The notes beneath the pieces were generated by a model. The model saw only the letters and a program-made list of their open reading frames with translations. It was not told the origin of the DNA and made no database searches. Positions 8,701 through 64,000 of a stretch of 64,000 bases of DNA are shown here, piece by piece. The DNA comes from Raillietiella orientalis (lineage: Eukaryota): NCBI GenBank assembly GCA_036172245.1, contig JAYWIR010000071.1:186001-250000 (forward strand), read 5' to 3'. The position numbers and the translations under genes are program-made. The number at the start of each line of letters is the position of its first letter. Position 1 is the stretch's first letter.

Positions 8701-10262
8701 AAATTAATGATTTTTGAAATTGAACTACATAGTTTTTCAGCAAAAAAGGGCAACTGCCCCTTTGTAACATGCATAATATAATTTCTTGCGAATTCAGGTT
8801 TAAAGTGTAATGTCCATTTTTAAAATGTGTAAGAAAGCATCTCACCAAGAATTTTTGTTTGTTCTTGTTCATCACTGACAAAGGAAGGGGTCATCATCCC
8901 GGGGTTATTTACATTAGTGTTACTTTTTAGAGAAAATTATCTTTTGGATGATGATCAGATAACTTGGATTGATAAGACAAGCGAAAAAGTTTACAAACTT
9001 ATTTGTGAAACACTTCCTTATGGAACAACATTTTGTGAATTTGTGAAGCATCAGCTTAAGGTGCAGTTGTTTTTCTATTTGCATTATTCATTTCATGCTA
9101 TGAAAAGGAGTTTCATAACGTAATTCAAGACTTAAAATTCGTTTTCCATTACGAAATGATTAATTTTGCAACATTTTTAAGAGGGAAGAAAAGTGGAGCA
9201 CATGGAAAAACGAAGGATGTCCTGAATTTAAGTCACCTCTTGCTGGTAGCCTGTCAGATGGGAACCCGAAATTAAAAGTTTCTTTGCATAGGAGAGCACG
9301 AAAACGCGCAGGAGATGAAATACGAAGTGCTCTCTCTGAGAAAAGAAGCCTAATGGGCAAGTGAGAACAGCTGATAAACAAGTGTCATTGTTAAACCATT
9401 GCTTGACCACCAGTTGTGAACTTACTCGACTTTGGAATTTATCAGCCAACAATATGGATGCATGCAGATCACAAGAGCGTGACTTCATGCCATCTCTGGA
9501 AGCTTATTTTGAAGAAGCTATACATCAGAGCCATAACGATAACATTAAAGAAGAGGAAAAGTAAGTCGGTTTTGTCTTGAATCATATGTATTGTTTCTCT
9601 TAGGCTCATCAATGATCCGAATTTTGCTTGGAGGGCTCTCCGACTTCTGGCACGTCAAAGTCCGTACTTTTTCAGTTATGGGAATATGAATACTGAAACA
9701 AAAATATCCGTGTACCTGGATTCTATGATCAGACGCATCGCCAAAGACGTAGTGGTGAGTGGAAACATCACAAGTAGATTATTGTGCTTCAAGTGTCATC
9801 CGAATTTTGCACCACCCAAAGTCGAGAGCGAAACGTTACAAACAGAAACTCAGGAAGCAGATATAGATGACGAATTGTTGAAAGTGAAAGATGAAGTAGA
9901 AGGAGATCCTGCACAGGATGATTGTTGTCCTGAGTCTCATTCTGAACGAGATAAGTTGTTTACTCTGGAAGAAGCTGAGAAGCTAGCAAGTCAGTTAGGA
10001 GAGGGTTGGAAGATTTTAGCCCTGAAGCTAGGATTTACATCAGATCAGGTACTCATGCTTTGTTTCAAGTTCTACAACTGAAATCTCAATCTAATTCTAG
10101 ATTGAATACTTTGAGTCGCAACTTTCCAATTGTACAGAGCAAGCAAAATTAATGCTACAGATCTGGATTGAAGAAAGTTCTGAAGATGCGACTGTAGATA
10201 ATTTGTTATACATAATGCAAGGTTTGCAAATGGAGAAGCAAGCAGAGGGTATTTTATGTTAA
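5718..10262 (+). CDS. THOC1: THO complex subunit 1 (Hpr1/p84N5), multi-exon, with C-terminal death domain
   Basis: GT-AG exons about 5718-5791, 5839-6140, 6195-6290, 6390-6504, 6611-6719, 7606-7847, 8931-9060, 9182-9360, 9414-9560, 9604-9754, 9794-10048, 10101-10262 (TAA). Motifs [95 protein letters not shown] and WRALRLLARQSPYFF match THOC1. The start is uncertain; a micro-exon ATG ATA AAA|gtaac at 5660-5668 is a candidate. Confidence 0.95.
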
Positions 10263-10267
10263 ATAAA
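10262..10267 (+). promoter_or_regulatory. polyadenylation signal of THOC1, overlapping the stop codon
   Basis: TAAATAAA: the AATAAA shares the last base of the TAA stop and is followed by a GT/T-rich element (gtcttgttctgtatt, about 10282-10296). Confidence 0.65.
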
Positions 10268-10380
10268 AGGATCTTCCATTAGTCTTGTTCTGTATTCACT
10301 GGTTGGGAGGATGTCTGCTCAACCATGGCATAATATCCTGCAGACCAACCTTGTTTTGTAGATTTATTTAGGCTTAGGTA

Positions 10381-10398
10381 TTGTTTTTTTTTCTTTAG
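10381..10398 (+). promoter_or_regulatory. strong 3' splice acceptor upstream of the TMEM259 start codon (cis or trans)
   Basis: ttgtttttttttctttag|g lies 31 nt before ATG 10430. The nearest donor-like site (ag|gtattg, 10378) would give only a 21-nt intron. Confidence 0.55.
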
Positions 10399-10429
10399 GT
10401 TTATGCAGTAAAGAACCACAATAGCATGA

Positions 10430-17610
<7,181 letters not shown>

Positions 17611-46766: not shown

Positions 46767-48810
46767 TCACTGCTCAACTGTTTTCAAGGGCTTCAGTTCT
46801 TTGATTTGCTTGATAAGATAAGCCTTTTCATCATTGAACTGCTCATCCTCTGAGCGCTCTGTATGAAACACTGTCAAAAAATCTATTAGTTTCTGTTGAT
46901 TCCTCAAAAGAATGTCCAAAATGGGTTTTGGCTTATTTGGATTAGCCACAAACACCTAGTACAAAAATGCACTCATACACATTGCATCCCACCCTTATTC
47001 ATACCTTAAAAACATGAAATGCTTCAAACTGAATGTTTTTCGATTTTTCTTTTAATATATTCATCATTAGCTTCAAATTATCGGGACTACTAATATATCT
47101 GATCATGATCTACAGGGCATCCAATAAAAGATCAAAAGTGAAGCAGAGATGCATTATAACTACATATTGGTTCATAAATGTAATAAATGTAGCAAAAGAA
47201 TTTTTGATGTATGATAATTAGAATACATGGGAACAGGAACATTACAACACAATAAGAAATCTTCAAACTTACAGACATGTTGTGTCGATCTAATAAAAGT
47301 TCACCTAGAAGCTTCAGGCTTTGGCGTCGGGTTACATAATTTTCTGAATTCAGGAGTCCCTGGTATTCATTAAAGATTCTGTCATAATTGGATACCAGAA
47401 ACTCAGCACAAAGGACTTTGTGCTTTGTAAGCAATTCCTAATGAAAGACAGTGTGTACAACCTAGACATAACGCCTTTCCCTAACTATACCTTGAACGTA
47501 GAAAAGGCATCTGAGGCAATATCAAAAGTTTGAACTTCAACATATTTAAAAAAAACATAAAATTCATTAGAATAGAGAATGATTTTGGCTAAAGGTTCAT
47601 ATCGTATACACTCTCTTAACATGCTTCCACATATCAGCGCAATGTCTTGAGATTCATAGCTGAAATTCAAATACTAATAGAAGTTCAATTTCACTTTTTT
47701 AACAATATTTGTTTGTGCTTAATATTTAGCGATATATCTATTATGTTTAATGCAAGTGCAAATTTGGCTATCGGTCTAAAGCAAGTTTTCCATTTTGAAC
47801 AAAAATTGTACAACCAAATTAGTGGTAAACATGCATAGGATCAAAACTATAAAAAATTTGCTCTCAAAACATACTTTGCATAGCATGAGCAAATGTGCAC
47901 GAAAAACAATAAAAAATTAGGAATGCGGAAAAACTTACCCTTTAAGCAATGTAAACAGGATTTCTTGATGGGCACATATATATTCCACTGTTGGTGCCCT
48001 GGTACCAATTTGCCGTCTCAACATGTTATTAAAAATTTGAGCAACATCCTTTTTGCTCTAATCAACAAAGGAAAACTGTTAAATCAATTGCGCCGGCTCT
48101 AATTAAAACAGTCAATTTCCTATGTTAAAACACGTATGCAACGAATTCTAGGCATTTTTCTTGAAAAAAAAAAAAAAAATGAACAAATAAGTACACAAAA
48201 ATATGTCTTCAAAACAACTGGAAAAACTCCTTGATTGCACAAAATAAAACTCATAGAAAATCAAAAGTATCTGTGAAGTGTAACAGAAAAAGTGTAAGTG
48301 TAACAGTTATCATCAAATTTGATGAGGATTCATGACAAGAGCATGTACACACAAGTGAACGAATAAATTTAGTGAGCAAATTACAAAAAATTTTTCATAC
48401 CTCAAATTCAACTTTGTTCAAATTATTGATCATTACTAATGGGAGATTGGAGCTATACATTTCCTGTGCAAGCTGAGCCAAAACTATATCAGCTTGAGGT
48501 TCTGTATCTGCTGTTCCATACAGCATATTTTTCATAATTAGAAGATTTTTAGTTACATCTTCTTGCGCCTATAATAATACATCAACGAAATTTTTAAAAT
48601 TCAAAAATCTGTCAAATAAATGTTGACACTCTGAAAACACATATAATGCTGCTCATTTCTGTCTTTACCAACTTTATAATTGATGGTTAAAAGTCAACTA
48701 TGGAATACCTTTTCTACTTTCTTGTCACCTTTCTCAAGAATAATAAATGCAGCTTTTAAGGTTTTAACTACATCAGCAGGACTCTTTTGTGATTTACCAA
48801 AGAGTGGCAT
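46767..48810 (-). CDS. CAB39: MO25/calcium-binding protein 39 (LKB1-STRAD scaffold), 7 coding exons
   Basis: Exons 48810-48709, 48568-48401, 48057-47939, 47659-47491, 47437-47273, 47109-47005, 46955-46767. Motifs [86 protein letters not shown] and [18 protein letters not shown]. Confidence 0.97.
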
Positions 48811-50882
48811 AGTTGAAACATCAACTTCAATATCACTTCGTAAAACTATCTTTATAATTTACTATAACTTTGAACTCGTATTTTTGAAGATGACAATTTT
48901 CCTTTTTTGATGGATAATTTCACATGTCCTTTCGGGAAACAAACAAGTCAGTTATCCTAATATATTGGTTTACACACAAATAATAAGCACAAGCACATAA
49001 AGAACATTTAAAATTAACATAGGAAAAATTAAATAAAGTGAAAATAATGTCATGGCTTTTTAAACATTGTTCTAAACTTTAGGATTCGTTGCATTTTTAT
49101 CGTACCTAGGTACTAGGAAACAATAATGAATAAATGTTTCGGTACATTGGCTTCGTTTACTTCCAAGGCTATCATCGGAGCGGTTCAACGGTGGTGAAGT
49201 TCACTAATCACCACTTAAATTATGAACGATACTTAAACTACTTAGTTGGCACAGAACTTTTCAGTTTTCAATACCGTGATAAATCAACTAGAAATTATAT
49301 TTATGGCACGTAATTATTAAACTGCATGTGCATCTTGATGGTAGATCTGTATCAATTCTTTCCAATGATGTTACTTTGCTTCGACAACTCTTACTTCAGC
49401 ACAGAATCGAAGTTTTGAGCTTTGGTAAAAAAGGTTACTTCATACCTCCGAACCATCATCAAAACTGCTTAATGCAAGCAATAAATATCAGAAAATTTTA
49501 AAAATATTTTTCACACAATCCAAGGTTAGAAATTCATTAAACCTAAAGAAAGCAGTCAGGGAAGAAAAATTGTTATCACTACGAGATTGTTGTTCAACAC
49601 ACAACCAATATTATGTAAGTGCACCATGTCCGATGAAACCAAAGTTATACTACAAGTGTAGAAAAACGAAATTAATTTAAATTACGAGAAAACATGATAC
49701 GATTTCTGCGACAGAAAAACCCACAGTGTTACTAAGTGTAAGGAAATCTTGAACCAAGTTAGCAACAAATAAAAATTAGAGTGGAGATTAAAACCTTTTC
49801 TTTACCGAATCAACATTCCGATTAACACAAGTGGAAGTCAGTATTTTTTTTTTCAGTGTGCATAATTTTTTTTTTTCGGGACTAATGAAGATTCCTCAGA
49901 CACAAAACACAAATTCACAAATTACAGTACAAAATGCTTACAAAACTCTTGCCCTTGATAATTCAAAATAAATAAACAAGAAAAAACAACAGTCTTATAA
50001 AAAAGTTTGATATGATTCATTACTTCTTATCAGACAGTCTTTTTTTAAAAAGCGATCTCATGTTCATACAATACAATATGGTATGTCGACAATTAAAATG
50101 CAATGTTTAGTGGTCACCATGAAGTCAAAAGTTCACGAAAAATGCTTACGTTGAATCTACGAAATCAAGAAAACCAGTAGATTGGAAAACTGACTTTTAG
50201 TCACAAAAATAGCTAGATCGGAACAAAACCATGCTGAGATTTCCGAGAATGTAGAACAACCGATAGATTCAAAAGAAAATTCATAATTTTAAGTGATGTA
50301 AAAGTAGTTTCTCCATTGCCATCATTTATACGAACGGATCTCCATTCCAACCTTCAAAGAGATTCCCAGCCTCTGAAAATTGTGGTTTTAATAGAAATTT
50401 GTAGCATTCTGTTTTAATATCAATAGCTATTTTAACCGTCTTGAATTCACAATCCAAAGACACTGCGGAGCTATTTTTTTTCTCGGAAATCAGTATAATT
50501 ATTCTGCAGAAAATCCAGGGATAAAAAAAAGAAAATACTTAATTTAAAAGGTAAGACTGCTGAAGTGATTTTCCTTTTCATATACATGTACATAGATACA
50601 TATTTAGTAAAAACTATGCTTCTTTCTCTCCTGCTTTAATAACTAAGCATAAAACCTAGATGGGAATTCTAATTAAGCAATGTAATGTGAAAGGGGATGA
50701 TTACCGTACATAGTGAAACAAAACTAGTTTTCTTCCTAATTCTGGAATGCCATTTGAAAAATTTCTAGCAATTTGATGTGCTTGAGAAAAAATCGAAAGA
50801 CATAATATATTATCTAAGTCATTCATTACATTCATTTTGTAGCAATACAGTTTTGTCTCTTAACGAAATATTTGCCACAGTC

Positions 50883-50924
50883 TATTAGAATCACTGTTTT
50901 TAATATTAGAATCACCGTTTTTAA
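50883..50924. repeat. 21-bp tandem duplication (2 copies, 1 mismatch)
   Basis: tattagaatcactgtttttaa / tattagaatcaccgtttttaa. Confidence 0.85.
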
Positions 50925-52653
50925 CCTACTAATACCAGGTCTGTGAAATTATATTATTACTTGCCATATATTCTTTGGAAATAAAGTGCTTAGGGAAATA
51001 CTGATTGAAAGTGAAATAAAATGAAATAACACCCTTGAAAAGTCATAAATCGAAAAGAAAGTAATGTTTAATGAATCTCTAATTGAAGTTTACATATTTA
51101 TTATTTCCCGTTATTAAAAATGGATGCTTCCACACATGTTTTTTCAACTCATATGGAGGAAACAGATTTTTTTTGGAGTAGATAAGATACGCAAAATGGC
51201 AATTAAAACCAATTAGGATTATGAAATAAGAAATTAAATTGCATATTTTTTACGCAGCCACGATTTTCACGATTTTATTAATACAGATGACTGCTTTACA
51301 GAAATACTGTTGCAATATTTTTTTATGCCTTTACATTTAGTAGGTGTATGATTTTGTGATACATGAGAATATGAGTTAGTATCGTGTTAAGATGTAAGAT
51401 TCTCTTAAATTAGGAACGAATGTCGTGCATCAATAGTGCGAAAGTTTGAAAATCCGCTGTATTCACTGCGGGAATCTTTGAATTGATGTTCACTACTTAA
51501 AGAAATAAGACTATTCTAGTGAAACAATATTATCACGTGTTTTGTATTTGACTATTAAGTCAATCCTTTAAGTATATCTGCTTTCTTACAGAAGTATTCA
51601 TTCATCATAGGTTCATAGAGTTCGAAACTGAGTTTTGAAATTTCATAATTTTGAAGGGTATTGAGACTAAAAATGTAAAGTACAAGTGATTAAAGAAATC
51701 TTTGCGAAGACTAGTACCATTGGATTTTTCAAGTGTAGGATTATAAAACAATGAATCGATAAATGCAGGAAAGGAATAAGAACCAGAAGAGTATCAATAA
51801 TGCGAAGAAAAAGTCAAAAAAGTCTGAAAAGCTAATCTTCAATCTTAACTTCATAACTATGTTCATTCTTGTTGTTTTTATAGTTTGAAAATAGGCGTGG
51901 TCATATTTTAATTTATATTAATCAGTTGTTAAATTTGTGGAAAATTACAGTGCACTGTAATTTTGAAAGTATGATACATAGATTTGAAACTTTAGGAGAT
52001 TTCTTAGGCGTATACCTAAGCTCGTTGCAACGATAAGGAGAACAATGAACCACTTAAAGGTTATGTGCTACAATTGTTTACAAAAAAATGAATATAATAA
52101 ACTAATTGAACTAGGTAATTAATATAATGTAAATAGAATATCTAATACAATATCTAATGCAGTTTAACCATTGTGCGGTTTCATTTATGCTAAAAACCAT
52201 TTATATTTTATGAGATATCATGACCTAAATAATGTGCTTTTAAGAGTTCCATTAATTTTTAGTCTTGAAAATATGAAACCGACAATTATGGAGGTTGTTC
52301 ACAATTTGTTGTTTGCAATTTCGTGTTTTTGTCCTATTGACTTTGTGTTTGAGACTACCGCAAAATATGGCGGAAAACCTATGCTCTTATCGTCATTTCC
52401 TTTTTAAATCTGTAATGTAAGTTAACGTGTGTAGTTGCTACGAAACTGTAACGTTGGGAAAGTGGTGGTTGAATAATGTACATGTGACCGAGTCGCTCTG
52501 ATGAAGTCATTGCATGTTCAGAATGACATTGAAGAAATTCCTTTATCAGCCTCATATAAGGCCTTGATGCAGTTACGAACACTGAATTTTTTTTTTTTTT
52601 CTGGAAATATATAGAACCGTGATCTGTCTAATTATTCCTTTCACTAAACGATT

Positions 52654-55579
52654 ATGGATTCTGGAAAGAAGCATTCAGTTAGTTATTTGCCTAAAAAGGC
52701 GGAAGAGTTTTCAAGAAATTGGAAGGAGCTACAGAAGGTAAAAAAATCTTCACTTGTTTGATTTGTTTCGTTTGTGTTGAATCGCAGTACTATGATGGTG
52801 TAAAAGCATTAACAATTACATTTAAATTTCGTCTAATTGGTTTTCAATTTAATTTTTTTTTATGCCCGTTTCTGTTGTAACAAAAGACTTTATTGAAGTA
52901 ATTGTTCATAAAGATGATTTTGTTTTCCAATATTAAAATTTTGTTGTAATTATGAGTTTTACTTGTTTGAAGCATCAGTGTTTAAGCACATTATTTGTGT
53001 ATAGATTGATTGAAATTTGGAATTTTGTTTTCTTCTGAAAGTATAATTAACGAAATTGTTAAGGTAATGCAGAACTCATCTGTGAAAAGGCATAAGAGTT
53101 TATTGCGTTCAAAGAAACAGTTTCGTAAATCAGATACCGTTTCAAATGAAGTATGGTTTGATGTTGATCGTAACCTTATAAAGAAACCATTCAAAAAGGA
53201 GTGCGGTGGAACAAACTTGGGGTATGTAGTTCTATAATTTTTTACCTTAATTAATTTCACTGTTCATTGTTCGAAATAGTGTATAGAATTGGAAAGTGTG
53301 CATAGAAGACGATGTTTTTCTTTGCAATTGAATTTTTTCAAAGAAAAGTTTCTTTTGAAAGTATTGCTTTAAGTAGTATTGAAATAGCAGTTTTTTAATT
53401 CTTGATGCAGTTTTTGTCTTCAAAATAATTTCATGCATATTTTATATCTAAAATTGGGGATTTTAAAAAAATATGTGGGGAACCTTTCATGTTAACAATG
53501 GGACAATTCTTTCTGGCTGTTTCATGACATTTTGCCTTCAGTGATGCACAATGGTTGAAGGACTTTAGAGATGTGCCCAATTCATCCTTCTGATAATGCA
53601 GGTGGCTTTAAAATTGTTTTTCCAATTGTCGCATTTATTTTGTGATTTTTATCAATTGCCCTGTGGATTTTGGGGAGTATTCTGATTAAAAATTGGTTTC
53701 ATAACTGACTACTGATTACTGGGATAACAGTTGATTGGTTGCTTCTATGTTTGTCATGCTTTCAGGTTTTATTTTATTGGTCATTGTTTGGTATTTTTGT
53801 TAGCCACTTGTTTCTAGAACATTAAGTATAATTGCAAATGTTGACTTATATTGGTTTGCAGTTGTTTTTTTGTTTGTGAATCACTCCAATTCATTCTTGG
53901 AATGTTTCGTATCATCTAACTCATCCTGCATATTGGTTATGTCTTGTACATCAATTGAATGAGCGAGTTTGCTTTTTGAATCTAAAACAAATGGATAAGT
54001 TAGACATTAATGTTTAACTCAAGCTTCTTAGTACCAGTGTTAACTTGACTCTTCATGTATAACATTGTACTGTAGATTGTGCATTGTTTTAAATTCTTTA
54101 TTTGTTGTTGATTACATCAAACAACAAATAAAGAATGTGTTTGAAACTTAAGATGTATAGTTTGAGTAATGCTTTGTGTAGAATGCTTAGAAAATGATTG
54201 AAAGGATAATAGATGTGATTTCAGGATGAAAATCTCTAATAGTTGAACTAATTACAGTTGTTGAACTAATAATAAATTTCTTCAATTCAAGATTTTGTGT
54301 GATCTTAGCTTTCCAGTGTTATATTTAGTAAGTATCATGAAATAGCAGGGTTGTGCTGTAATTTCAACACTGTTGCAAGTTCCTTTGGCCAAATGTATTG
54401 CTGTCATGTACTTTATTTATTCATGGTACCTCACATCATGATCAAGAATCAGTGGTCTAGAATGGATTTTTTTATCATGTTATATTTCTAATTATAAATT
54501 TTGGATTATGATTGTGTGTTCTCAGTCTTATGCTTAAATGCATTTGTGATATGTCATGTGTTCATGGCATGTCATTATATGTTACTACATGATTATGTTT
54601 TGTAAAATCCAAACTGCTAGCATTGATAAAGTGGAAAAGCTTGATTGTGGATAGTTGAATTAATTTGGAATTTCCACATCATAGATGATGTGGAGTGTCC
54701 ATTATTGTTTAGGTGCATTTGACAGGCTTTCTTTTTCAATCTTGTGATTTTTTGAGTACCCCCCCCCCCATCTCCCCCCAAGTCATGTGCATCTGTCATT
54801 AATTTTGAATTTTGAAATTGGTTGATGGGGAAGTTGTTTTGTTTGAAATTGAAAACAGCAATCTGTGATTTTCAGTGTAAGGAATATATTTGCAATTGAC
54901 TGTGAGATGGTAGGCATTGGAGAACATGGCCAAGAAAGTATGCTTGGAAGAGTATCAATTGTTGATTATTCAGGAGATTGTGTCTATGATAAATTCATCA
55001 AACCACAAGAAAAAGTCACTGACTATCGCACTGCTGTTAGTGGTATCAGACCTGAAAACTTATCTGCAGGTAATCAGTTTTTTTGTACTTGCACTAACTG
55101 TGTTGCAGGTGAACCTTTCAGCATAGTTCAAAAGGAAGTATCTAGTATCATTAGGAATTGTATCCTTGTGGGTCATTCTCTTCATCATGATTTAAAAATG
55201 CTGTATCTGTTTCACCCTAAGCATTTAATCAGGGATACTGCATTGTGTGTAATAACTTTGCTATGAACTATTTGTTAATTTGTGTCAGGTACAAACCTTT
55301 CCAACGTTTATCTGGAGGAAGAATGCCATCTCTGAAAAAGCTGGCTGCTCAATTGTTAGGTGTGAATATCCAACAAAGAGAACACTCATCAGTAAGTTGC
55401 GTGCTTCGTTAGTTTTTCCTTGATCTTGAAATTAGATTGAAGATGCCAGAGTAGCACTTCGCCTGTACACGTTGTACCAAAAAGAATGGGAACAAGAACT
55501 TGCGTGTAACGTTTCAAGGAAATGCTTGAAAAAACGAAAGAAACTAAGTTTTGTTGAAGCTACAAAAGATATTGTGTGA
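52654..55579 (+). CDS. REXO4: RNA exonuclease 4 (DEDDh 3'-5' exonuclease)
   Basis: Exons 52654-52737, about 53064/53073-53221, 54876-55069, 55109-55244, 55289-55391, 55436-55579. Motifs PKKAEEFSRNWKELQK, VWFDVD, AIDCEMVG, VTDYRTAVSGIRP, ILVGHSLHHDL, IRDTA, PSLKKLAAQLLG and EHSSIEDA. Confidence 0.93.
54093..54136. repeat. near-perfect 20-bp inverted repeat (hairpin) in REXO4 intron 2
   Basis: attctttatttgttgttgat tac atcaaacaacaaataaagaat, with one extra A in the right arm. Confidence 0.85.
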
Positions 55580-55656
55580 TGGGAGCTAATTGGCAAAACA
55601 CCATCCATTTTTAACATATTGTTTATTCAATTACTTATGATATATTATTAGATACC

Positions 55657-56491
55657 ATGAACAGCAGAGTGTGCTATAAGTGTAATCGATCTGGTCACAT
55701 AGGCCGAGATTGCATGTCTAGTCCTCGATCAACTGGTGGACGGGGTGGGTATCGCAGTACTCGAGGTGGGAACATTGGTAGTTCTAGGGGTAAGAGCAAC
55801 AAATGATAAGGAAGTAACTATAGTTCATCTCAGAGAAGTGCTACAAATGTAATCGTGTTGGCCACTTTGCAAGAGACTGTAAAGAGGAGCAAGACCATTG
55901 CTACAGATGTGATGGCGTAGGTCATATTGCACGGGATTGTCAACTGTCTCCTGATGATCGTAAGTTGACACAGCACACCTTGTGCCCATGAGGGAATGGT
56001 GCGCACAGCACTTTGCTACAACTGTAACAAAATAGGCCATATAGCCAAGGATTGCGGGCAGCCAGAAAAAAAATGCTACTATTGTGGGAAACAAGGGCAT
56101 ATCAGTCGAGATTGTGATCAAGATGATCGCAAAGTGATGGTAAATATCCATTATGGTGGTGCACAGTGTTGTGTTTTCCAGTGTTACGTATGTGGAAAAT
56201 ATGGGCACATCAGTCGGGACTGTCCAGAAGGTGAATCTGATGAAAGAAAGTGCTACAAGTGTGGATCACCTGGTCATATAAGTAGGGACTGTCCTGAAGG
56301 TGGCCCTTTGGAAGATGACTCCAATTGCTATAGGTTGATACATGTGTGTGGGAGACAGTAATAGCATTCATTTTAGGTGTGGAAAAAGAGGTCACATGGC
56401 ACGAAATTGCCCAGACAATAATAACAATAGGTGCTATCGCTGTGGAGGCACTGGGCATATAGCTCGTGAGTGTGTAGATGTGGCTGCATAG
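55657..56491 (+). CDS. CNBP: cellular nucleic acid-binding protein (CCHC zinc-knuckle and RGG protein) with nine knuckles
   Basis: Exons 55657-55789, 55834-55959, 56009-56139, 56182-56333, 56377-56491. Knuckle 1 is followed by an RGG-rich linker ([13 protein letters not shown]) and then eight more CX2CX3GHX4C motifs. Confidence 0.93.
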
Positions 56492-56724
56492 AAGAATTGA
56501 GGTGCTTTTCCCTCGTGTTGGAAGACATGCTTTCCTGCATTATCATGCTAATTGATCCAATAGGGAAGACGAAGGGAAAGTTTAGGGCAAAGGGAGGGAG
56601 GGAACTTACATACTGTAGCTCAAATTGACAGAGTTGTGAAAATAAGTGGAAAAGAAGACTGGGTACATGATATGGAATAATTCGTCGATACAATCTTATT
56701 AAGATAGTTATAGGGGAAGAAAAA

Positions 56725-56730
56725 AATAAA
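56725..56730 (+). promoter_or_regulatory. polyadenylation signal of CNBP (possibly shared with REXO4)
   Basis: AATAAA followed by the GT-rich stretch gttgtttgttcgtcttt. Confidence 0.65.
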
Positions 56731-59700
56731 GTTGTTTGTTCGTCTTTAATTGATTTTAGGAGAACATCGCCGGCTCGGTTAGTTGGCAGGTCGTTCGAGG
56801 CAGATGGTGCACATGAAGACAGCAGTGCACGAATGTCGTCTAACTTGTCCGTTGCAGCATCTCTATAATTTCACGCAGCTTGGCATCTTCCTCCCTACAC
56901 AAAGACTTTCCCTAGGATTTAGTAAGAAACCGGATTTTAGCATTCATTCAGCCGATTGCCGGAAACTCGCCTGGTTATATGAAGGTAGCTGCACTGCTAT
57001 CCCAGATGTGGACAAACGCAGCAGGGTGTTCTTTTCACGGTTCACGTCGCATTTTTCCGGTTTGTTCGTTCCATACCACACCTATGCAAGAGTTGCAGGT
57101 GGTGTGCTGGTCATGCAAAGGGTCCGAGCGTGGCGACCCCGCTCCGTGTGCCCATATGTTGGCAGGAGATTTCGCCTCCGTGTGACGTTGGTTCTCCGTC
57201 GCATTCAGTCGAGCGTGGACCTCGTGCGCAGTTAAATGTGTTTTCTCATTTCAAGAAAAAATCTTGCACGGAGACTGTAGTCGAAGCTTCGTTCGATTTC
57301 AGTATTTCGTATGACTGGCTTGAACCTGGAAAAGCTTCATCGTTTATCTTTATCATGCACAATAAACAGAGGGAAGGTGATCTTCATTAGGAAGCCGTTC
57401 GCGGAAAGAAATAGGTGCAACTCACGCAATGAAATGGGTGTTGGGTCGTGTTCAGCGTCCAGTGTTTTCTAGGACTGGAAGGAAAGTGTGGAACTAAGTA
57501 GAAGGAGAATGCACGATTTCGGGGGCGTGAAGAAACACCGACGGTCTTCGAACAGTTGGCAGTCTTGTGTTTTGACCGATCCCATTTTCGTTTTAAAGGA
57601 GGATGTTTTTTTTTTTTTTGTCTGCCCTGCCCGTGGCTTGCGGCCGCCGGAATACTTCGGATGGTATCAAGCTTCAGCTGCATCGTGGATCCGCCATTTC
57701 AGTTGGTCGTGGACCCGATCAAAGACCTTACATTGGCAATGCCATTTCCTGCAGGCCGCCCGGGATTCGGAGCCGTTCTTCGAACAGGGAGCAGTCTGGT
57801 GACGCCCATTCCCAGCATTAACGCGGGATTCTCCATTCTGGCTGCACACATCCTCCGAGGCAGCCTGCAGTCTTTCGTTACTTTCTCCAACGTGGGCGCT
57901 TGGCAAAGCACGGCACTTTCTGTATGATTATTGCCATGCGTCGGTGATTTGCATTCGCAGCACAATCTGCAAAGTTTTCTCGCCTCCCAGTCTATCTGCG
58001 GCAGCGGATGGCTGTATTTATCGGTCAGTACTCTTAGGGTACTGACGCAGAACAGATTTGAAAATCGAAACAGCAGAATGCTTCTCACTACATGGTAGGA
58101 ATCCTAACATTTCCCGTCAAACAGCATTAGTGGAAGTGGCTTAAAACTAGCGTGTCACACAGTTTAGAGTTATCTCTGTGCTCGCCGTGGAAATCTTGAG
58201 GTTCCTTGGACTTCAGAAGACTTAAGAAGATCGGTAATCACCATGTATCTCTCTGTCTCTGCGTGCGATGAGAATGCAAAACTCTGGTTTATTTGTTCTT
58301 GTATCGTCACAGAGTCGACGTGAACAAGTGCAAACAGCTTGCCGTTTGGCGGAGCTTCATCTAAGCATGAGCACGAATTGCTTCATCGTGTTTTCTGTCT
58401 TCATCGTAAATTCGATATGGGACATTTCCTTCCCTCGGTGTTTTCCTTTGATGGTTTGCTTGGAATGCACCTCCCCTTGGGTGCTGCCTTGCGATAGCCA
58501 CCAGTGTCTTGCCCTCCTGTCACGGTCAACCAGGACTGTCGCCTGTACTTCTCATACATCGTCATAGTCGAAGGTTTCAGTGATGATGATGAATACTACA
58601 GCATACCATTTCCTGGATGAGGTTTCCTTAGCCCGCCTACCATGCGCATCGGATTTGCGTTTTCCATTAGTACTCACAGTCTCTTGCGAAAACTTCATTC
58701 CTGCATCCAGTGAAAAGAGAACAAAAGGCATAGAAGGTTTCCGAGCAGGCAGACGATTACAGGAGGGGAGAGGAAGAAGCAACTTCCGTGCATCGCGGCG
58801 GTGTGGCTGACAAATCGAAGCCGCTTCGAAGTTAATCTGAACTCACCGTCGGAATTCACAAAGGTCATCACAGGAATCATGAAGCTGCCTATGTGCAAGC
58901 AGCGAAAGACAATTTTGAATTTGTTTTCTTCCGTTGTCCTCTTTCCTGTCAAGATGTGCTATACGCCGTTTTTCTTCGCTGCTTCTCGTTAGGATTGCCT
59001 TTCTGCTTACTTGTGCTCTCGTTTCTTTCAACGTGGACATCCCTCGACTTCCTCCGTCTCTGCCAGCTCGCGCTTTCGCATTCTGTCAAGAACTCAGCGA
59101 AACAAAGCTGCAACGCTCCCTGGTGCTTTGATAGAGGCTACGCGAAGGCTGCATCTTTATCGATTCGAGTAGCATTCCTCGTGTTTCAAAGAGGTGAGAT
59201 GAGTATTCCTCGATGCTGAACATGCGCGCATCACCTTTGCAACGTGCGCGACATCGCTGTTGACTTTAGGACCGGATCCAGTCTCGTCCACAACCAGTCA
59301 GTGTTCCATATTTGGGGAGGTTTTTGGGGGAATCGTGAGGTCTTGGGGATTCTTGATAAGCACTTTCTCATCTAGAATTGGTGGATGCTGCTGCTTTCGG
59401 CATCCGTGCTCTACATTGCTCCCAAGTCCTCACCATGTCATGTGCACATCCTTGCTCTACAGTTCCCGTCAAAGGAGCCGCTCTGACGGAAATGATCTCC
59501 TTACTCTTCTTGATGATATGGTCCCTCGTAACCTTTCGTAACCGAGTCTCTTGACAAAAAGAATGAAAAGCAGTTTTCAATGTTCAGATTTCGTTTCCGT
59601 GGGTTCCCTCCGCACCGTTTGGGCAAGCGAGACCATCTGGCAATTGGCACATTTGGGAATGTGCAAATTGCAGCAAGCTTCTCCCAGGAGCGACGCGCAC

Positions 59701-61962: not shown

Positions 61963-63397
61963 TCAAAGGCGCGCAACGTCGATGACAACGTCCTGCCGTT
62001 CGGCGTGGCGGAGGCCTCCGACGCCCTCTGCGCACTCCCCTGGCTCCTCCTCGATGCTGAGCTGGCTGATCAGCTTGTGGTGCGGATGGTGGTGGTGGTG
62101 GTGGTGGTGATGGTGGTGATGCAGCGGCGGCAGCTCGTCCTCCCCGCCGACGCGGCCGATGCCGCCTCCGCTGACGTGACAGCACCGGCGCCCCGCCAGA
62201 CGCGACCGTAGCGCCTTGCTCATGTTGCCCGGCTCGAACTGCGGGTCCACGCGGCTGAACTCGCGGAAGAGCGCGTCCGACTTCTCGTCCACGCTGTAGT
62301 CGCGCGCCACCGCCGGGAGCACCCTGTGCGGCTTCTGGAAGAACCGCGACAGCAGGAAGTTCTTCAAGGCCTCCGCCTTCGTGGTCGCCGCCGGCGCCGC
62401 CCTCCCGGCCGGCTCTCGGTCTTCCTCCTCGGTACTTCCCCGCAGAAGGTGAAGATCGACGGGAACGGACCCGCCGTTTCCCCGGCAGACTCTCGCCGCA
62501 GAGCCGGAGGGCATCCCGGCGGTGCTCCAGGGTCGCGCGGGGCAGAGCTCGCTCACCCCCTCCCCCCTCGCCTCCACCTCCTCCTCCCCTGTGACGTCCT
62601 CGTCCACGCTGGCGGCGTTTTGACTCCTGCCTAGGCTCGAGGAGCCGCAGGCGCTCTCCATGCTCCTGTAGCCGCTGTCGTGCTTCATCTGATGCAGGCC
62701 GGCCCTGACAGGCGTGCCCTCCGGCTTGGGCACAGCGGCCTCAGAAGGCCCCGAAAGCCGACAGCTGCCCTCTTCGTCCTTGTCTTCCGTCGGGGACTTC
62801 TCCGGGACGCCCTCGCAGTGGTCCCTCCGCTCCCGACGGACGTCCTCCGAGGGCGGCATTCCTGCAGCCGCGATGGGGAGCGTCAGCGGTGCCAAAGATT
62901 CCCCTTCCCCCCCCTCCCTCCTCCCCCTGAGCCGACCTCCTCCTCCTCTTCGTCTGGCAGTCTCCGCCCTCGAGTCCTCGTCCATCCGGTCCAAGCCAGC
63001 GTCAGCTTCCAGCCACGCTCTCAGGTGCCACAGCTGGGAAGCGGACGGGGGATCGTCCGGATCCTCTGAGAGCCACAGCGCCTCCGTCTCCCCGGACAGC
63101 TCCCTGGAGAGACCTCCAGCCGCTGCCCGTCTACGGCCGCGGACGTCCTCGCAGATGGGCGCCGCTCCCAACGGGTCCTCGGCACTCCAGGCGGGTCCTT
63201 GCCGTCCGGGAGGTCCACGGCTGGATGGGTTCGCCTCCCCGAGATCGGAGAAGGAAGAGTGGCCCTGCCGGAGCTGCTCTGCAGCGCCCTCTCGGACCGT
63301 GAGGTGGGCGAGAGGGGGGGGGGATGCCGCGTGTCCCGGAGACACGCCGCCGCCGCCGTCTGCTGCTGCCCCCGCCTCCTTGCTCGCATCCGCGTAT
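61963..63397 (-). CDS. CBARP: terminal coding exon of a CBARP/BARP-like protein (voltage-gated calcium channel beta-subunit anchoring/regulatory protein); 5' exons not identified
   Basis: About 1.4-kb open frame after the acceptor ctgcctcccgtag|ATAC at 63397. Short motifs QLWHLRAWLE, MKHDSGYRSME, RDYSVDEKSDALFREFSRVDPQFE and LSIEEEPG occur in the same order as the remembered vertebrate CBARP motifs (WSLRASLE, DSGYASIE, RDYSIDEKTDALFHEFLRHDPHF, PVIEEEPG). Confidence 0.75.
62086..62121 (-). repeat. coding (CAY)12 repeat encoding a poly-histidine tract
   Basis: LHHHHHHHHHHHHPHHKL within the CBARP-like ORF. Confidence 0.9.
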
Positions 63398-64000
63398 CTA
63401 CGGGAGGCAGTTCAGAGGGCAGTTCGGAGTACCCCCTGGAGGCGAGAGGGGCGCAGAGGAGGATTCCTTCCACCCTCCCGGATACCAGAGGGAACCATCG
63501 GTCGGGGAAGGGCATATGGCGCACGCGGGCACGGCTGCCACATCCTGCCGTCCAGTCTCCCCAAGGCGCCACTAGAAGCGCGAGTGTCCCAACAAAATGG
63601 CGCTTTCCGAGGACGTCGAAACGCGGGGATTTTTCCTCCAGCGCTTCCCTGGCGCGTCTGTCGCACGGCGGCAAACCGGAACCGCAGCCGTCGTCTCACG
63701 TGCCCTTCCAACCGCCACAATGGCCCGGCACCGCGTTGGTCGACATTGTAACGGAGAAGACGCGCACACAGAGGTGCCTCGGACGGGTGACAGGGAGGGG
63801 GGGAGGTTCGTGGTCTGAGCTAGAGGCAGAGCACGCCACCACGTCCGAGTTCAGCCTCCCCCTCCCCCTCGTGTCCCTCGTGCCGCTACAATGCGTGGTC
63901 GAGAAGCGTGCGCGCTCCTGGGAGAACGCGCGCGCGCACGCCTCGCTCCTGACGTTTCTCGGACTTGCGGGGGCGTCACGCGAGTGGGAGAACAACGATC

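Follow-up and report, generated by a model that had tools for sequence, protein, structure and literature searches.

When the start codon of one gene lies a few dozen nucleotides behind the stop codon of its neighbour on the same strand, the question arises of how the downstream gene obtains an mRNA of its own. This question is raised by a REXO4-like gene and a CNBP-like gene that lie next to each other in the 64-kilobase (kb) stretch of DNA analysed here (the window, in which position 1 is the first letter). An original prediction, made from the letters alone, had offered three answers: a dicistronic or trans-spliced unit, a 5' exon shared by both genes with all of REXO4 nested in CNBP intron 1, or a promoter inside REXO4. 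From the genomic sequence and public RNA data we find that an RNA from a close relative of this genome carries a short leader, foreign to the window, joined to the AG just upstream of the CNBP start codon. We consider the chances to be about even that REXO4 and CNBP form one two-gene transcript which is resolved by spliced-leader (SL) trans-splicing, a claim that rests on one contig of a related strain taken together with the genomic context.

The layout of the spacer described in the original prediction was confirmed when the letters were read directly. The REXO4 stop codon and the CNBP ATG lie on the same strand with 77 nucleotides (nt) between them (55580-55656), and the frames of the two genes differ. 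Upstream extension of the CNBP open reading frame (ORF) is ruled out by a TAA at 55612-14, which shares the frame of the CNBP ATG. The one GT in the spacer (55621-22, GTTTAT) is implausible as a donor, in keeping with the earlier view that no convincing donor is present, and a T/A-rich stretch ends in attattAG/ataccATG, which places the AG (55650-51) 5 nt ahead of the ATG. A script scan for AATAAA and ATTAAA, which the prediction had also reported missing, found neither of them between the last REXO4 exon and the CNBP ATG, the earliest AATAAA past CNBP being at 56725. None of 14 further variant polyadenylation (poly(A)) hexamers occurs between stop and ATG in the same scan; 55436-55656 contains no more than two weak variants, AAAAAG at 55479 and AAGAAA at 55538, and both precede the REXO4 stop. 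It is important to recognise that the absence of a hexamer from 77 random AT-rich bases is what chance would lead one to expect; it is the RNA junction at AG 55650-51, and not the missing hexamer, that takes this site beyond chance. Folded as RNA, the spacer did no better than shuffled versions of itself: the z score was +0.76, with 152 of the 200 shuffles folding at least as well. On the minus strand, TTTATT at 55622-55627 reads as AATAAA; we saw no minus-strand gene that might use it.

The junction itself comes from two public RNA runs, X1 (a metatranscriptome) and X2, in which a small share of the words matched and whose contigs were aligned to 48600-58500 at 90% likeness. Each run yields one contig, over CNBP only. 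The X1 contig (745 nt) has 14 differences in 719 aligned letters and the X2 contig 13 in 650, neither with insertions or deletions, and since both are 98% identical to the window their source is a close relative and not this genome. The match of the X1 contig begins with the G of the predicted acceptor (55651) and is preceded by 26 extra letters that are unmatched in the aligned stretch: ATACAAACCGTGTATTTACAGTTGAT. As a canonical acceptor needs the exon to start at 55652, the ambiguous G at 55651 is assigned to the leader, which then has a length of 27 nt or more and has ATG as its last three letters. The acceptor AG at 55650-51 is used in RNA, and a random chimera would not land exactly on a predicted AG. 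The 26 letters are presumably not those of a common adapter. The mean word depth of the X1 contig is 15.8; the X2 contig starts at 55744, inside CNBP exon 1. Neither run gave a contig over REXO4, the spacer or 48.6-55.6 kb, contigs of this kind being able to show presence only.

One check proposed with the original prediction was to identify what is joined to 55652 in RNA, and the answer is a leader of 26/27 nt that is foreign to the 64-kb window. With up to 3 mismatches allowed, no match to the leader was found on either strand of the window; the longest exact word common to both is 11 nt, and the best edit distance is 8/27 on the plus strand and 7 on the minus strand, where five shuffles gave 7-8. 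The leader is non-local. The proposal that both genes share a 5' exon upstream of 52654, and that REXO4 sits inside CNBP intron 1, is not supported by this: the 55.6 kb upstream do not contain the leader, and within that distance we found no same-strand first exon with a GT donor that could supply it. Given that the leader is missing from the window, a cis exon would have to sit more than 55.6 kb upstream, and the intron behind it would cross REXO4, Mo25, the PiT transporter gene, the kinesin-13 gene, Membralin and THOC1. A 5' piece of 27 nt would fall within the 16-52 nt span of known leaders and would be short for a usual first exon, and a contig built at k=31 would be expected to retain at most 30 nt of a shared leader. 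The AUG that ends the leader also opens an upstream ORF (uORF) of three codons (Met-Ile-Pro), the UGA of which overlaps the CNBP AUG (ATGA; 55652-55662), and one might speculate that it provides translation control on CNBP.

The leader was also sought elsewhere. There were no matches to 25 of its letters in genome and viral contig collections, and its sub-strings, written in DNA and in RNA letters, occur in no paper of an open-access full-text search. Rfam gave no match at gathering score in the whole window. Among metagenome contigs a 20-letter core of the leader was found at two loci, an AT-rich one and a GC-rich one with ORFs of bacterial type, neither of which has the features of a leader gene; these were rejected because about as many matches are expected by chance for a 20-mer. 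The features of the window are collected in Table 1.

Table 1. Positions and strands of features in the window, with the evidence on which each assignment is based (ORF, open reading frame; CDS, coding sequence)
Feature	Position	Strand	Evidence and remarks
AG splice acceptor used in RNA	55650..55651	+	X1 contig loose end at 55651
Stretch removed from CNBP mRNA, 72 nt	55580..55651	+	Sequence, RNA contig, hexamer scan
CNBP-like gene	55652..56745 (55.66-56.49 kb in the Pfam gene map)	+	Intron joints in 2/2 RNA runs, CDS script, Pfam zf-CCHC
CNBP exons	55652-55789, 55834-55959, 56036-56139, 56182-56333, 56377 to at least 56598	+	RNA contigs
REXO4-like gene (DEDDh RNase T-type exonuclease)	52654..55579 (52.65-55.58 kb in the Pfam gene map)	+	Pfam PF00929, homologue names, tblastn and in-frame splice-site search
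Acceptor-like site before REXO4	52587..52614	+	T14 run (52587-52600), then atatAG (AG 52613-14); sequence only
THOC1	to 10.26 kb	+	Pfam; last exon with Death domain
Membralin/TMEM259	from 10.43 kb	+	Pfam
Kinesin-13	19.9-28.4 kb	-	Pfam
PiT transporter	31.1 to at least 41.1 kb	+	Pfam
Mo25/CAB39, 7 exons	46788-48810	-	Pfam; divergent from REXO4

If these observations are joined into one mechanism, then the 5' end of the CNBP mRNA would not lie in the spacer; a leader of ~27 nt encoded elsewhere would be spliced onto the AG, most likely by SL trans-splicing. A single precursor covering REXO4 and CNBP would be transcribed from the REXO4 promoter, within the 3.8 kb that separate REXO4 from the divergent Mo25 gene, the REXO4 mRNA would be released through 3'-end formation inside the 72-nt stretch by way of a non-canonical signal, and the CNBP mRNA would be capped by the leader. 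The 72-nt stretch would represent the intercistronic part of a precursor with two genes or else the last part of an outron, and it must also contain the REXO4 3'-end signal, though without a canonical poly(A) hexamer. According to PMC12582326 and PMC12460157, published operon screens look for genes on the same strand, a gap of at most 250-300 nt and a leader acceptor at the downstream gene. REXO4 and CNBP share a strand and fall inside that threshold of 250-300 nt: the REXO4 stop is separated from the CNBP ATG by 77 nt and from the acceptor by 72 nt. The mRNA of the downstream gene, CNBP, starts with a foreign leader spliced to the AG that precedes its ATG. Of the dicistronic or trans-spliced unit first proposed, the trans-spliced half has gained direct support, in that a leader from outside the window is joined to AG 55650-51. 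We infer the dicistronic half, namely a transcript shared by REXO4 and CNBP and cleavage of REXO4 inside the 72 nt, and also that the leader is a true SL common to many mRNAs. A more far-reaching version, in which a new arthropod-lineage leader of ~27 nt, AUG-ended, would resolve true operons both here and at a second tight gene pair in the window (THOC1-Membralin), and would place a uORF on CNBP, is one that we put forward tentatively, with the balance of probability against it.

There are a number of points that weigh against a two-gene transcript resolved by SL trans-splicing. The junction is reached by one contig only (X1, one of the two runs), and the contigs come not from this genome but from a 98%-identical relative, whose upstream gene arrangement may differ. 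REXO4 is without a recognisable poly(A) signal before the acceptor, which leaves its 3'-end formation unexplained, and the mature mRNA would be identical if transcription began within REXO4 or the spacer. The leader is so far known from the CNBP mRNA, and a leader RNA gene (the leader followed by a GT and an Sm site) was not found in the window. In a comparison with published leaders, the leader matches neither the calanoid CopepodSL nor the five copepod SL-like sequences (PMC4664967, Table 1), it matches none of the four Parhyale leaders (PMC5111886, methods), and it differs from the chaetognath leaders in part of Table 3 of PMC2481426. Finally, protein similarity points to an arthropod but to no particular lineage of arthropods.

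Several other explanations need to be considered alongside this one. The strongest of them, though unlikely in our estimation, retains leader trans-splicing and does away with the operon: CNBP would be transcribed from a start of its own, placed in the last exon or intron of REXO4 or in the spacer, splicing of the leader would remove a short outron, and REXO4 would end independently within the same few dozen bases. The X1 junction is equally compatible with this arrangement, and a short outron from a promoter inside REXO4, the third option of the original prediction, would give the same mature mRNA. PMC12582326 places many flatworm leader acceptors on monocistronic genes, and PMC7986045 states that operons 'have not been reported' in copepods and amphipods, the trans-splicing arthropods. 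However, some 72 nt and their surroundings would then have to accommodate not only an acceptor but a promoter and a 3'-end signal as well, whereas other intergenic gaps here are kilobases long; the sole TATA-like run (55641-46) lies 6-10 nt ahead of the acceptor, too near to serve CNBP; and another tight same-strand pair in the window hints at a systematic spacing. Ordinary cis-splicing is less probable again and would need a short non-coding CNBP exon 1 more than 55.6 kb upstream, with REXO4 and several other genes inside intron 1. Vertebrate CNBP has a non-coding exon 1 and its ATG just inside exon 2, and an acceptor 5 nt from the ATG would fit that 5' untranslated region (UTR) intron. Long introns also occur in this DNA, the PiT exons being found at 31.1-31.6 kb and 40.5-41.1 kb. 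Yet the leader is missing throughout the window, the intron would have six or more genes to cross, on both strands, CNBP's remaining introns measure just 42-76 nt, and a first exon of 27 nt would be unusually short.

The remaining two explanations we regard as very improbable. An assembly or library artefact would make the 26 letters spurious and have CNBP transcripts start unspliced near 55652, and the fact that there is one contig, from a mixed sample, with the junction covered in no second run would allow for this; set against it are a break that falls exactly at a canonical AG after a pyrimidine/AT-rich tract, the depth of the contig, and letters that do not come from the window. Least probable of all is a single mature mRNA of the Drosophila type, in which translation of CNBP would depend on reinitiation or internal entry and no leader would be spliced on. 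Drosophila is known to have dicistronic genes, no poly(A) signal is present before 56725, and a dicistronic form, if it coexisted with the others, would explain why REXO4 lacks one. In the RNA contig, however, CNBP has a spliced 5' end to itself, which contradicts a dicistronic form as the sole one, though such a form may coexist with it.

SL-resolved operons have been described in nematodes, tunicates, flatworms, chaetognaths and Hydra, and a system of this kind is well established; its occurrence in an arthropod-like genome, with an unpublished leader, would be new. The layouts closest to REXO4-CNBP among those described are the operons of Ciona intestinalis, the SL1-type operons of Caenorhabditis elegans and the RPS14-PCNA operon of the chaetognath Spadella. 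In these, as here, the gap between genes on the same strand runs from a few bases to a few dozen, and the downstream gene receives its leader at an AG just before the ATG. The poly(A) site abuts the acceptor in all three, with 3 bases only between the two in Spadella (PMC2481426), and two operon types are set out in PMC12582326. They differ from the present pair in that no poly(A) hexamer is visible here, where the arrangement is known from a contig and genome sequence, and in that protein similarity here is to arthropods. The SL2-type operons of C. elegans share with this window ~100 nt of intercistronic sequence and a strong U-rich acceptor. THOC1-Membralin has exactly this layout (AATAAA at the stop, ~130 nt, T9CTTTAG), whereas REXO4-CNBP is without AAUAAA, and no leader specialised for downstream genes was seen.

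Flatworms offer a further comparison, given that, according to PMC12582326, every reported leader ends in ATG, operon candidates are those on the same strand at a distance of at most 300 nt, and the operons are mostly of two genes. The leader found here is also ATG-ended and the introns here are ~40 nt long. However, the best protein matches are to arthropods and not to flatworms, and CpG is depleted in the AT-rich gene blocks, which may be a mark of gene-body methylation; the protein evidence speaks against a flatworm. The arthropods that trans-splice leaders, namely calanoid and siphonostomatoid copepods and amphipods, belong to the same phylum as the best protein matches. Their leaders are 19-46 nt long and are added at the 5' UTR, and AAUAAA occurs in only about half of copepod complementary DNAs (PMC4664967). 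A 2021 methods paper describes operons as unreported in copepods, amphipods, rotifers, ctenophores and others (PMC7986045). Later reports of arthropod or crustacean operons were not found among the open-access papers searched, and the words operon and polycistronic have 0 occurrences in the Parhyale transcriptome paper (PMC5111886).

REXO4 and CNBP proteins are both tied to ribosome production, through rRNA processing and through the translation of ribosomal-protein mRNAs. If the more far-reaching version is true, then an rRNA-processing nuclease would be coupled to a translation regulator at the levels of both transcription and translation. It would also mean that one window holds two concrete arthropod operons and a new leader sequence, and that the leader could be used to retrieve all trans-spliced mRNAs of the organism and to mend fused or truncated gene models. 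This would open the question of whether operons arose again independently in arthropods. There is in addition a lesson for annotation, in that no first exon or promoter need be missing from a gene which begins 77 nt behind its neighbour.

Turning to the genes themselves, the CNBP gene model is fixed by the fact that the same four introns are missing in both RNA contigs. These introns are all GT..AG and measure 44, 76, 42 and 43 nt. The CDS runs from 55657 to 56491, with the ATG at 55657-55659 and a TAG stop at 56489-91, and encodes 209 amino acids with eight knuckles of the form C-x2-C-x4-H-x4-C and an RGG-type stretch following knuckle 1, as is appropriate for CNBP; vertebrate CNBP has seven knuckles. 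Pfam zf-CCHC matches the CNBP exons with E = 2.9e-30, an AATAAA lies at 56725-30, and the best named matches at full coverage are from a pseudoscorpion (60%) and a spider ('Cellular nucleic acid-binding protein', 56%). Intron 2 (55960-56035), at 76 nt, is longer than an AG at 56007-08 would lead one to guess, and its skipped part encodes a CxxC-like CYNCNK that is missing from the mRNA of both runs.

The REXO4 model, which was built from tblastn of five homologues and an in-frame splice-site search, begins at an ATG at 52654 and ends at a TGA at 55577-55579. Its 3' exons (54876-55069, 55109-55244, 55289-55391 and 55436-55579) are separated by introns of 39, 44 and 44 nt, and it includes two 5' exons with ambiguous boundaries. 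RNase_T (PF00929) matches one exon, at 54853-55068, with E = 1.7e-7. Of 360 homologue candidates 354 reach E <= 0.001, those with names being RNA exonuclease 4 or ISG20-like, with identities of at most 58% and from mixed taxa. The strings AIDCEM, HHDLKML and HSSIEDA are present in the gene model and supply the DxE, D and H-x4-D pattern. Upstream, an acceptor-like AG follows a T14 run and sits 39 nt before the REXO4 ATG, so that REXO4 may be trans-spliced too; from its sequence, AG 52613-14 may be a candidate leader acceptor for the first gene of the pair. The string AACCGTG, which makes up the 7 bases that follow that AG (span 52587-52621), recurs in the leader, as chance would allow. In 48.8-57.2 kb the single Rfam match was to a microRNA family in REXO4 intron 2, at chance level (E = 0.9).

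The gene map of the window is derived from Pfam scans of ORFs, and it is notable for its spacing. Two pairs of directly adjacent genes share a strand, and both are closely spaced, with 77 nt in REXO4-CNBP and 167 nt in THOC1-Membralin, as would fit operons; the remaining neighbours are kilobases apart. At THOC1 the stop codon TAA (10260-62) overlaps an AATAAA (10261-66), and ~130 nt past that stop lies T9CTTTAG, with its AG at 10397-98 and a second AG at 10407-08 (10101-10702). The Membralin ATG at 10430 comes 31 nt after the first of these. Judged by these motifs, the arrangement resembles a textbook junction between two operon genes, intercistronic region included. The 3.8-kb gap between Mo25 and REXO4 is likely to be a shared promoter region; 43 ORFs from this gap, REXO4 intron 2 and the 7 kb after CNBP gave no Pfam families. 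No tRNA and no telomere-type repeats were found in the window.

With regard to the source of the DNA, protein similarity indicates, at the level of these comparisons, an arthropod without close sequenced relatives in the collections searched. A database search with a REXO4 exon was no more specific than 'Eukaryota'. Among the 120 listed of 1086 matches to a Mo25 exon, the named rows at 84% or above (84-88%) are arthropods and two Trichuris rows, the arthropods among the matches listed being myriapods, branchiopods, a decapod, an amphipod and chelicerates. In a FastTree of 28 Mo25 rows, 27 of them hand-picked from those 120, the window falls on a long branch beside the myriapods with weak support (0.68-0.81), and this branch may be inflated because its row was pieced together from tblastn segments. 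For the THOC1 C-terminus, 14 of the best 20 clusters are named and 12 of these are arthropod, as are all seven named clusters in the first ten, at identities of only 34-43%.

The window is eukaryotic DNA of very uneven composition, with blocks of ~30% G+C that hold recognisable genes (for example 4-8, 24-30 and 46-56 kb) alternating every few kb with blocks of 60-69% G+C (12-20, 40-46 and 60-64 kb). The AT-rich gene blocks have a ratio of observed to expected CpG of 0.26-0.57, against 0.86-1.04 for the GC-rich ones, a depletion which we take to be the pattern expected from gene-body methylation. Parasitic flatworms are not known to have gene-body methylation. Long ORFs in the GC-rich blocks are of low complexity, and the 11 that were scanned matched no Pfam family. 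On the minus strand at 61963-63411, an open frame of 482 amino acids (63-69% G+C, with a run of 12 His and no Pfam family) may be a real low-complexity gene or GC-rich noise. The exons of the PiT gene lie partly inside GC-rich DNA.

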